Origin: a virus
Virus record (IMG/VR): IMGVR_UViG_3300029305_004297
DNA length: 20,374 nt
Reading direction: 5' to 3' (one strand)
Below, in pieces: positions 7,091 to 8,752 of the stretch. The notes beneath the pieces are model-generated. The model ran no database searches. It was not told the origin of the DNA and saw only the letters and a list, made by a program, of their open reading frames with translations. The position numbers and the translations under genes were made by a program. The first letter of the stretch is position 1. Each line of letters begins with the position of its first letter.

Positions 7091-7516
7091 ATGACTATTA
7101 CTACTGTACAGAAGGATCTATTCACTATGGCTCAGGGCTACTATCTAGCCCACTGTATCAGCGCAGACTTCGCTCTTGGCGCTGGCATTGCAAAGACTTT
7201 TGACACTGTTTACAACATGAGATTTAAGCTATTTAGAAGCTATCCTGATTATGAATACAATTGTGGTGATGCAATTCTAATTGATAATGTATTTAATCTT
7301 GTTACTAAGAGAAAGTGCTGGCATAAGCCCACCTACGAATCTCTGAGAGAGGCACTTGAGATGATGAAGGAACAGCTAGATTTTCTAGGTGCCACTAAGC
7401 TGGCTATGCCCCGTATTGGTTGTGGCCTAGACAAGCTTTCTTGGGACCAGGTTTATGACATTATCTGCGAAGTGTTTGAAGATATGGACGTTGACATTGT
7501 GATTTGTGAGATTTAA
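7091..7516 (+). CDS. TARG1/OARD1-type macrodomain protein (putative ADP-ribosyl hydrolase)
   Basis: 141 aa. DLFTMAQGYYLAHCISADFALGAGIAKTF...KRKCWHKPTYESLREALEMMKEQL...KLAMPRIGCGLDKLSWDQV is collinear with human TARG1 (GDLF..LAHCISEDCRMGAGIAVLF...HKPTYENLQKSLEAM...LSMPRIGCGLDRLQWENV). RBS AAAGGAG is present. Confidence 0.8.
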   Translation: MTITTVQKDLFTMAQGYYLAHCISADFALGAGIAKTFDTVYNMRFKLFRSYPDYEYNCGDAILIDNVFNLVTKRKCWHKPTYESLREALEMMKEQLDFLGATKLAMPRIGCGLDKLSWDQVYDIICEVFEDMDVDIVICEI

Positions 7517-7531
7517 TTGGAGGAATTAATT

Positions 7532-8752
7532 ATGGCAGAAGTAAGGCCGACCTACCTTATCATGGTCACCACTGCAAATAACAATAAGTATTACAACCTT
7601 TTTCCTGAAGGAGATATGTTCAGAGTCGAGTACGGACGTGTCGATGCCACTAAGACTACTAGAACTTATCCTATGTCCAAATGGAACGCACAAATTGCAA
7701 GCAAGCTCAAGAAGGGCTATCAGGATGTTACAGACTTGAAAAAGGATTTGGTACAGGAAATTTCCTCTGCAAATCCTGAGAGTCCTTATAAGGAAATTGA
7801 GAACGCCGCTATCAGAGCAATTGTTGAAAAGCTACAGAATATGGCTCGTGAAACCATTCGTAAGAATTACACTGTCAAGGCATCTTCTGTTACTCAGGAT
7901 ATGGTTGATGCTGCACAGAAAATTATTGACGCTCTGGCAAACTATAGTTCTACCATTGAAGAGTTTAATGATAATCTGCTCAAGCTGTTCACTGTCATTC
8001 CTAGAAAGATGGGCAATGTAAGAGATTACCTTGCTAATAAGCCTGAAGACTTTGCTACAATTATTTCTAAGGAGCAGGATCTACTTGACGTTATGCGTGG
8101 TCAGATTTATGTCAAACAGGATGATGAGCCTGTCGAGACTGTAGAAAAGAAACAGCAAACTATTCTTGAAGAGCTTGGTCTTGTCATGGAAGAGACTACA
8201 GCTGATGATGTTGCTATGATTAAGACTTTGATGAATGAATCTGCAGGAAAGTTTAGAAAGGCTTGGAGAGTCACCAATCTAAAGACGCAGGATCGCTTTG
8301 ACAAGTTCGTAGCAGATAACAATATCAAGGATACTAGACTACTATTCCATGGCAGTCGTAGTGAAAACTTCTGGTCTATTATTAAGACTGGACTGGTGCT
8401 AAGACCTACAAATGCAGTTATCACTGGTAAGATGTTTGGTTATGGCTGCTACTATGCCCCCAAGTGCGCAAAGAGCATTGGATACACTTCTCTGTCTGGT
8501 TCCTATTGGGCACACGGTGGTAACAACACTGCCTACATGGCATTGTTCGATGTTGCTTATGGCACTCCTTACGATGTTTATAACTTTGATAGCAAGTATT
8601 ATAACCTTGATTATAATAGACTTCAGCAGTTTAAACCCGGTGCAAATTGTCTGCATGCACATGCTGATAGAGGCATGCTACGAAATGACGAGATTGTTGT
8701 TTATAAGGAAGAGCAGATGACTATTAAGTATTTGATTGAGATTGGTAATTAA
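7532..8752 (+). CDS. PARP-family ADP-ribosyltransferase (WGR domain + helical + catalytic domain)
   Basis: ATG 7532 lies 8 nt after GGAGG. The WGR-like N-terminus reads FRVEYGRVDATKTTRTYPMSKWNAQ. The catalytic signature LLFHGSRSENFWSIIKTGL...GKMFGYGCYYAPKCAKSIGY matches PARP1 LLWHGSRTTNFAGILSQGL...[27 protein letters not shown] matches the PARP1 NEYIVY glutamate segment, so the H-Y-E triad appears intact. Confidence 0.8.
   Translation: MAEVRPTYLIMVTTANNNKYYNLFPEGDMFRVEYGRVDATKTTRTYPMSKWNAQIASKLKKGYQDVTDLKKDLVQEISSANPESPYKEIENAAIRAIVEKLQNMARETIRKNYTVKASSVTQDMVDAAQKIIDALANYSSTIEEFNDNLLKLFTVIPRKMGNVRDYLANKPEDFATIISKEQDLLDVMRGQIYVKQDDEPVETVEKKQQTILEELGLVMEETTADDVAMIKTLMNESAGKFRKAWRVTNLKTQDRFDKFVADNNIKDTRLLFHGSRSENFWSIIKTGLVLRPTNAVITGKMFGYGCYYAPKCAKSIGYTSLSGSYWAHGGNNTAYMALFDVAYGTPYDVYNFDSKYYNLDYNRLQQFKPGANCLHAHADRGMLRNDEIVVYKEEQMTIKYLIEIGN

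Follow-up and report, generated by a model that had tools for sequence, protein, structure and literature searches.

A TARG1-like macrodomain gene paired with a WGR-containing PARP gene in phage and bacterial loci

This study concerns two adjacent genes on a 20,374-nucleotide (nt) stretch of viral DNA, IMG/VR record IMGVR_UViG_3300029305_004297 (here called the window). Positions 7091-7516 encode a predicted TARG1-like macrodomain protein, and positions 7532-8752 encode a PARP-type ADP-ribosyltransferase that begins with a WGR domain. Coordinates are those of the whole stretch, and its strand as presented is the + strand. The identities of the domains, their catalytic residues, the order of the genes, and the conservation of the pairing among relatives are established here. 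We consider it probable, if only just, that the pair is a co-transcribed writer/eraser cassette, activated by DNA breaks, within a phage replication and repair block. The carrier is a large phage, of about 170 kb, that probably infects Clostridia.

Domain architecture and catalytic residues

The two genes and their parts are laid out as follows.

7078-7082, + strand: Shine-Dalgarno sequence (AGGAG) for the macrodomain gene, lying 8 nt ahead of its ATG, as read from the sequence
7091-7516, + strand: TARG1/OARD1-like macrodomain gene, 141 amino acids (aa), from ATG 7091 to stop codon TAA 7514-7516
7519-7523, + strand: Shine-Dalgarno sequence (GGAGG) for the PARP gene, beginning 2 nt past the stop codon of the macrodomain gene and lying 8 nt ahead of ATG 7532
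7532-8752, + strand: PARP gene, 406 aa, a bacterial-type, PARP2/3-like ADP-ribosyltransferase of WGR-HD-ART (WGR, helical domain, ADP-ribosyltransferase) architecture
7544-7741, + strand: WGR domain, about aa 5-70, with the YGR motif Y34-G35-R36 and with K61-G62-Y63
7793-8176, + strand: helical (regulatory, HD-like) domain, about aa 88-215, placed by model helices and profile/phmmer alignments
8177-8752, + strand: ART catalytic domain, about aa 216-406, plus stop codon, with H273, G274, S275, Y307, K314, S315, Y318, and E387

The tight linkage of the genes described in the initial annotation is evident from this arrangement; the distance of 4 nt given there between the stop codon and the ribosome-binding site is 2 nt, a trivial discrepancy. 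Although the open reading frame (ORF) finder started the PARP gene at TTG 7517, the true start is almost certainly ATG 7532, since metagenomic homologs are 406 aa long and the GGAGG sequence sits 8 nt before this ATG. A scan for terminators found none on the + strand in 6800-9900 and none between the two genes. Promoter-like sites occurred only at chance level, and the promoter scan was uninformative.

We found that the macrodomain is collinear with human TARG1/OARD1, as had been claimed for it. Its best match in a phmmer search against all PDB chains was human TARG1/OARD1 (4j5r; E = 3e-26), with aa 3-138 aligned collinearly and at full length to residues 8-143; other TARG1/OARD1 chains (2eee and 2l8r) were also matched, and a pairwise alignment gave 40% identity to human TARG1. 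Its two loops for ADP-ribose, GAGIA at aa 29-33 and PRIGCGLD at aa 107-114, are essentially identical to those of TARG1. K73 and D114 stand opposite TARG1 K84 and D125, the catalytic pair of that enzyme (PMC8120803). The lysine is present on proper alignment, so the objection that the initial annotation had set beforehand, its possible absence, does not apply. Among homologs that are likewise paired with a PARP, the catalytic Lys is found in 51/51 and the Asp in 45/51. The likeness to DarG-type macrodomains that had also been proposed is real, though weaker than that to TARG1: the PADLOC DarG macrodomain model (329 positions) matched at 4.5e-13, only over its positions 27-142, and phmmer gave weak matches to 5m31 and 5m3i, which are DarG structures (3e-3 and 7e-2). 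The macrodomain also matched phrog_335 (1.8e-25), which PHROGs labels "phosphatase." By these sequence criteria, the product of 7091-7516 is a TARG1-like macrodomain protein with the catalytic Lys and Asp, and by analogy it would act as an ADP-ribosyl hydrolase on Glu/Asp esters and phosphate esters.

The PARP catalytic assignment held up to profile search, with a Pfam match (PF00644) at E = 3.9e-23 and 82.4 bits against a cutoff of 26.7, and phrog_23333 matched across the full length of the protein (7.6e-65). In the phmmer alignment, H273-G274-S275, Y307, and E387 correspond to H862-G863-S864, Y896, and E988 of PARP1, while K314, S315, and Y318 correspond to K903, S904, and Y907. The intact H-Y-E triad named in the initial annotation is thus present, and the catalytic residues are invariant both in an alignment of 80 representative family sequences that are 37-55% identical (alignment A1) and in 124/124 homologs from the loci compared below.

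The WGR domain claimed alongside it is supported by the family profile and by the structural model. Pfam placed a WGR domain at the same N-terminal position in 57/80 members of A1, and G35 and R36 are nearly invariant among relatives. Full-length phage homologs found by tblastn (Cellulophaga phi4:1, XacN1, and FBKp34) have a significant N-terminal WGR match, with PARP_reg in the middle. When the A1 profile was searched against the PDB, it gave one continuous alignment (from position 7 or 10 to 399) to the WGR-HD-ART region of PARP2 (1.4e-35) and PARP1 (1.2e-33); PARP3, PARP4 (1.3e-16), and the tankyrases ranked below these. PDB chains that hold only the catalytic part (HD plus ART) aligned from profile position ~83-91, and phmmer aligned aa 137-347 of the PARP to the catalytic fragment of PARP1, across its HD and ART. 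Pfam PARP_reg was found in only 2/80 relatives in A1.

An AlphaFold2 model of the PARP was confident (predicted local distance difference test [pLDDT] score, 92.4; predicted template modeling [pTM] score, 0.89). It shows four β-strands (aa 7-47) and a helix (aa 48-60) in the WGR region, then a helical bundle spanning aa 92-191 (helices 92-112, 122-138, 142-155, and 171-191), followed by the ART fold. The best Foldseek matches of the model were WGR-CAT (WGR plus catalytic domain) chains of PARP1 and PARP2 bound to DNA breaks, in line with the expected resemblance to the PARP1 catalytic domain.

The protein starts with the WGR domain at about residue 5, and neither Pfam nor the model revealed zinc fingers (Zn1-Zn2-Zn3) or a BRCT domain. 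The description "PARP1-type with WGR" therefore stands for the WGR and PARP catalytic domains and is to be read as PARP2/3-like or bacterial-type for the rest: the enzyme is PARP2/3-like and bacterial-type, a minimal PARP whose WGR motif reads YGR, not a strict PARP1-type enzyme. By analogy with such enzymes, it would transfer ADP-ribose in a DNA-break-dependent manner. An H-Y-E triad is required for making polymer but does not by itself ensure it, PARP3 being the example, and by sequence the product could be either mono- or poly-ADP-ribose.

Conservation of the gene pair and alternative partners

We next consider how widely the two genes occur together. A metagenomic collection clustered at 90% identity contained 4,722 PARP homologs at E ≤ 1e-5, and the family formed 662 clusters at 50% identity (E ≤ 1e-30). 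The nearest 120 homologs were >91% identical to the window PARP and lay on contigs of up to ~170-207 kb; the closest homologs in genomes, mostly Clostridia, were 45-61% identical. For comparison of gene neighborhoods, homologs of all window genes were located in 38 IMG/VR loci, one Logan contig, and 80 GTDB genome loci (designated below by L numbers).

A TARG1-like gene lies upstream of the PARP gene, on the same strand, in 34/34 IMG/VR loci in which the PARP is ≥53% identical and upstream sequence is visible. The same arrangement occurs in 15/23 of the closest GTDB genome loci, mostly Clostridia, and 2 of the other 8 are truncated at the PARP gene, leaving no upstream sequence to inspect. The paired GTDB examples include the isolate genomes of Ruminococcus sp. 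YE282 (L049) and Lacrimispora amygdalina (L055), Lachnospiraceae TWA4, and several contigs of ~160-170 kb that were binned into metagenome-assembled genomes. With the Logan contig, the order macrodomain-then-PARP is found in 50 loci, in 31 of which the genes are directly adjacent. The flanking genes (RecJ, LigA, PNK/HD, and DnaE) are rearranged among these 50 loci, and the macrodomain identity drops in step with the PARP identity, as co-inheritance would predict. That adjacency is kept across relatives whose PARPs are only 48-60% identical, despite the shuffled flanks, strengthens the case for a functional link. Collectively, these comparisons argue that the pairing is not due to chance and provide good evidence for a joint function in this clade. 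Fusions of the two domains were absent from the ten longer family members (494-762 aa), which carry only WGR, PARP, or TPR domains.

An HNH gene has entered exactly at the junction of the macrodomain and PARP genes in about 10 loci (L016, L019-L027, and L049), where the pair is not separated further. HNH homing-endonuclease genes are scattered through the cassette region. In the window itself, one such gene (10222-11136, + strand; endonuclease VII-like) lies just before the NAD+ ligase gene and overlaps its start.

The pair also occurs in a bacterial chromosome, within the region 1298-10024 of the locus from Lachnospiraceae bacterium TWA4 (L050; 3.1-Mb scaffold). It is flanked there on one side by a DMP19-like gene, a PD-(D/E)XK nuclease-family transposase, and an uncharacterized gene of 1317 aa and on the other by a phage-type integrase. 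This neighborhood suggests that the cassette also travels on integrative elements.

Other PARP clades have other neighbors. In the Bacteroidota clade (L067-L123; e.g., L091, 9134-10189), a gene of ~320 aa lies directly downstream of the PARP gene on the same strand in 34 loci. Its product had no Pfam match; a hidden Markov model built from it matched gp030 of Cellulophaga phage phi4:1 (L001, 6157-6621; E = 2.7e-10), which follows directly after the phage PARP. This gene may serve the PARP as an alternative partner, as a regulator, or as an eraser. In addition, a gene for an ARH3/DraG-type ADP-ribosylglycohydrolase adjoins the PARP gene in three genomes (L055, 9312-10583; L075, 7050-7877; and L087, 6704-7522). 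In Lacrimispora amygdalina (L055), the TARG1-like, PARP, and ARH3-like genes make up a three-gene ADP-ribose cassette with a second hydrolase. That the partner differs by PARP clade points to the partner gene as the key to function.

Genomic setting and possible functions

Pfam and PHROG profile searches showed the window to be a one-strand block of phage nucleic-acid metabolism genes. Those closest to the pair are listed here, the first five as identified by profile match.

255-1151, + strand: PNK-like kinase with an HD domain (AAA_33 kinase with HD phosphohydrolase)
1114-2007, + strand: Thg1-like gene (3'-5' nucleotidyltransferase)
2091-2699, + strand: cell-wall hydrolase-like gene
2801-5188, + strand: MVP (major vault protein) homolog, 795 aa
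5213-7057, + strand: RecJ-like exonuclease
8766-9317, + strand: uncharacterized gene of 183 aa, directly 3' of the PARP gene

After the 183-aa gene come, in order, YqeY-like, bactofilin-like, and HNH endonuclease genes, followed by genes for an NAD+-dependent DNA ligase, an SF1 helicase, a DnaE-type polymerase, and ThyX.

The company of the RecJ-like exonuclease, NAD+ ligase, SF1 helicase, DnaE-type polymerase, and ThyX supports the reading of the pair as a writer/eraser cassette. Enzymes of WGR-HD-ART architecture are sensors of DNA breaks, in which binding of DNA relieves the autoinhibition exerted by the HD. In the phage, the N-terminal WGR (YGR) domain would bind nicks or ends of DNA, and binding would release the autoinhibitory helical domain and thereby turn on the H-Y-E ADP-ribosyltransferase. 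The likely substrates would be the PARP itself, nearby proteins modified on Glu/Asp, and/or 5'-phosphorylated DNA ends. The TARG1-like macrodomain would then hydrolyze the ester- or phosphate-linked ADP-ribose, resetting the signal and limiting both damage and the drain on NAD+. Such a cycle would be triggered by lesions and would operate during phage DNA replication and repair. Related enzymes offer precedents for these steps. The Herpetosiphon and C. difficile WGR-PARPs make poly(ADP-ribose) in vitro, and the Herpetosiphon enzyme is DNA dependent (PMC8120803, PMC5966428). PARP3 mono-ADP-ribosylates 5'-phosphorylated DNA ends, a modification that TARG1 reverses (PMC8385414), and Glu/Asp-linked ADP-ribose is cleaved by TARG1-type enzymes (PMC8120803). 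Given the architecture and the genomic context, a DNA-end-triggered, reversible ADP-ribosylation cycle can reasonably be inferred; we likewise infer the enzymatic activities, the dependence on DNA, the mono- or polymeric nature of the product, the substrates, and the action of both enzymes on a common substrate.

Several points weigh against this reading. At the level of the domains, the Pfam Macro score of the single macrodomain sequence was just under the cutoff (20.9 versus 22 bits), and the Pfam WGR match (PF05406) of the single PARP sequence was also sub-threshold (14.3 versus 22 bits; E = 0.046; aa 17-71). Because of the latter score, the architecture was checked in the four further ways described above (phage homologs, members of A1, the A1 profile, and the model). 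At the level of the loci, PARPs of ≤41% identity stand without a TARG1-like neighbor, namely, those of the phage LR756500, of L041-L043, of Cellulophaga, Klebsiella, and Xanthomonas phages, and of Bacteroidota genomes. Since these distant phage PARPs have no adjacent TARG1-like gene, the eraser is not obligatory for the PARP family. Conversely, at least 62 phage records outside the PARP matches hold a TARG1-like macrodomain that stands alone, which indicates that the macrodomain also has PARP-independent uses. No PARG is encoded in the window, and no activity data on any phage PARP were found in the searchable literature. Finally, the integrase, transposase, and DMP19-like genes around the chromosomal pair in Lachnospiraceae TWA4 would also fit a role in defense or anti-defense.

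A role of that kind is the alternative that survives best, and we regard it as improbable. The pair would be a toxin/immunity-like conflict module (for superinfection exclusion, abortive infection, or host takeover), with the PARP as effector and the macrodomain as an antidote that protects the carrier; the PARP would modify proteins or DNA of the host or of competitors, or would use up NAD+ on meeting foreign DNA ends. Writer/eraser pairs of the DarT-DarG type are indeed toxin-antitoxin defense systems (PMC8385414), and the PARPs of phages were proposed by Iyer et al. to modify host proteins, as the T4 ADP-ribosyltransferases do, and to be related to the PARPs of polymorphic toxins (PMC7824862). 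Furthermore, the cassette is mobile; in the Lachnospiraceae chromosome, it has integrase, PD-(D/E)XK transposase, and DMP19-like genes beside it, and genes for HNH homing endonucleases flank or interrupt it. However, the PARP matches no PADLOC defense model, and the 141-aa macrodomain, which covers only part of the DarG model, lacks the toxin-binding C-terminal domain of DarG. The PARP also keeps its WGR and HD, a built-in, DNA-dependent autoinhibition; having retained its own autoinhibition module, it would need no antitoxin. In addition, the phage needs NAD+ for its own LigA, and in phage contigs the cassette lies among replication genes rather than in an accessory island.

It is unlikely, in our estimate, that the two genes have separate jobs, with the macrodomain acting in AdfM-like counter-defense against host DarT2-type marks on phage DNA or against other host ADP-ribosyltransferases and the PARP acting independently. 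The match to the PADLOC DarG model and the weak matches to DarG structures are compatible with such a role. The chimallivirus AdfM is a stand-alone DarG2-like macrodomain that strips DarT2 marks off DNA (PMC13309987), and in many phages with stand-alone TARG1-like genes a PARP was not detected. What counts against it is the coupling of the macrodomain to the PARP, on the same strand, in 50 loci with shuffled flanks, together with a far closer match to TARG1 (3e-26) than to DarG (3e-3). A mere counter-defense gene would, moreover, not be expected to accompany the PARP into chromosomal islands.

A cassette for capping and uncapping DNA ends seems to us distinctly unlikely. Here the PARP would ADP-ribosylate 5'-phosphates at the ends of the phage genome or at replication nicks, by analogy with PARP3, which ADP-ribosylates 5'-phosphates in vitro. 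If this were so, ends could be shielded from host exonucleases, or ligation by the phage NAD+ ligase could be gated, with the TARG1-like enzyme uncapping on demand.

The MVP homolog two genes upstream raises the question of a phage vault. The 2801-5188 product matched Pfam MVP_shoulder (4.4e-23), the Vault_3 repeat (6e-8), and rat/human MVP structures (3e-17) but no PHROG family. In the window, 2.3 kb separates its gene from that of the PARP; the distance is ~6 kb in LR756500, a phage of 462 kb. Its relatives, at 38-71% identity, come from 49 phage contigs of IMG/VR and from LR756500/501/503, which are huge phages. PNK/HD kinase (26/49) and Thg1-like (14/49) genes neighbor the MVP gene at phage MVP loci, which hints at a link of MVP to RNA repair. 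The "first viral MVPs" were described from two gut phages in a 2023 preprint, which stated that a vault PARP (vPARP) homolog was not found in them (10.1101/2023.11.10.566534). A vault-like particle in which the PARP works with the MVP homolog as a functional analog of the vault PARP (PARP4) is very improbable despite the proximity of the two genes in the window and in LR756500: none of the 49 other phage MVP loci in IMG/VR has a PARP or macrodomain gene within 10 kb, which largely refutes an MVP-PARP unit; MVP is missing from most PARP loci, including one with a 94% identical PARP (L006), and from the bacterial PARP loci compared; and the PARP is closest to PARP2/PARP1 (1.4e-35) rather than to PARP4 (1.3e-16) and has no C-terminal extension able to hold an MVP-binding region. 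Given the 0/49 loci and L006, the proximity seems to reflect a common location within a variable early-gene region and not a functional unit.

The remaining surroundings of the pair are variable. Neither Pfam nor PHROG nor PADLOC gave a credible match for the 183-aa gene, and relatives do not conserve it. Together with the YqeY-like gene and the gene for the 115-aa bactofilin-like repeat protein, it spans 8766-10139 (+ strand); all three are missing from L005, a 94%-identical relative in which an unrelated gene of 195 aa occupies that site. A bactofilin-like ORF follows the PARP gene in L041/L042. We also considered a conserved trio of PARP, an intervening gene, and YqeY, because YqeY lies two genes past the PARP in Klebsiella phage FBKp34 as in the window. 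This was rejected as coincidence or weak linkage, since the intervening proteins are unrelated and L005 lacks YqeY. At 255-2007 (+ strand), the AAA_33 kinase/HD and Thg1-like genes form an RNA-repair-type module, with an RNA ligase just upstream in relatives (L005, 729-4473; L004, 12141-14344); the same RNA-repair gene set lies between PARP and MVP in LR756500. A nucleotide search with 7000-8800 against 50,697 phage genomes gave no match, so the phage is not among the deposited isolates.

Comparison with known systems

The PARP and TARG1-like families are already known in bacteria and phages. Perina et al. cataloged PARPs of Aeromonas phage Aeh1 and Cellulophaga phi4:1, as well as viral TARG1-like proteins, in 2014 (PMC4245714), and Iyer et al. 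reported PARPs in jumbo phages in 2021 (PMC7824862). With these reports, phrog_23333, and the thousands of metagenomic homologs, the view that such enzymes are very unusual in phages proved overstated, yet homologs occur in only 16/50,697 deposited phage records. A search of the available literature did not return the conserved TARG1-like-then-PARP operon, its abundance in phages of ~170 kb, or the alternative partners of other clades.

Prokaryotic and viral PARPs have been cataloged for more than 10 years. The pair described here is compact and conserved: two genes, one for a 406-aa PARP that has its full set of regulatory parts and one for a putative eraser of 141 aa, abundant in metagenomes and set within a replication module. 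Less rare than the initial annotation assumed, it offers a good experimental entry into prokaryotic PARP biology, and it could be a tractable model for DNA-sensing ADP-ribosylation outside eukaryotes and for DNA ends as physiological substrates. Abundant phages of Clostridia that carry a PARP2-like enzyme, a TARG1-like protein, and MVP within 6 kb could be a reservoir of, or a conduit for, typically eukaryotic genes.

Prokaryotes are not known to have an HPF1 partner. The phage PARP otherwise resembles human PARP2/PARP3 and the core of PARP1 in its collinear WGR, helical, and ART domains and in keeping the H-Y-E residues and the equivalents of G863, K903, S904, and Y907. It differs in its low identity (~16-18% in structural alignments), in having YGR in place of WGR, in lacking an N-terminal tail, zinc fingers, and BRCT domain, and in a helical domain too divergent for Pfam PARP_reg. 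Several of these features recur in clade 1 of the bacterial PARPs (Clostridiales/Cytophagales), with which the phage enzyme groups, sharing length, architecture, the YGR motif, and the Pfam-invisible helical domain; Garcia-Saura et al. described this clade in 2018 and noted YGR in most bacterial PARPs and a helical domain cryptic to Pfam (PMC5966428). The PARPs that have been tested biochemically, from Herpetosiphon aurantiacus and C. difficile CD160, fall in other clades, and their functional partner is PARG (PMC8120803); the eraser linked here is a TARG1-like, operonic one, carried by a phage.

Among phages, the PARPs of Cellulophaga phi4:1/phi17:2, Xanthomonas XacN1, and Klebsiella FBKp34 (PHROG 23333) are full-length homologs of 24-33% identity with a significant WGR match. 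They likewise lie among nucleic-acid metabolism genes (ligase and CCA-adding enzyme) but have no adjacent TARG1-like gene; the Cellulophaga phage has, instead, the downstream PARP partner that it shares with the Bacteroidota PARP clade.

On the eraser side, the macrodomain has the size, loops, and catalytic Lys/Asp of human TARG1/OARD1, from which it differs in being phage encoded and operonic with a PARP. The type 2 DarT-DarG systems and AdfM have in common with it a TARG1-fold macrodomain with the catalytic Lys, and DarT-DarG shares the logic of a writer/eraser gene pair as well. The pair does not belong to the DarTG systems, the neighbor of the macrodomain being a PARP with no PADLOC match. 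In contrast to DarT-DarG, the writer here is a WGR-PARP rather than DarT, and the eraser has no C-terminal DarT-binding domain and is much less similar to DarG than to TARG1.

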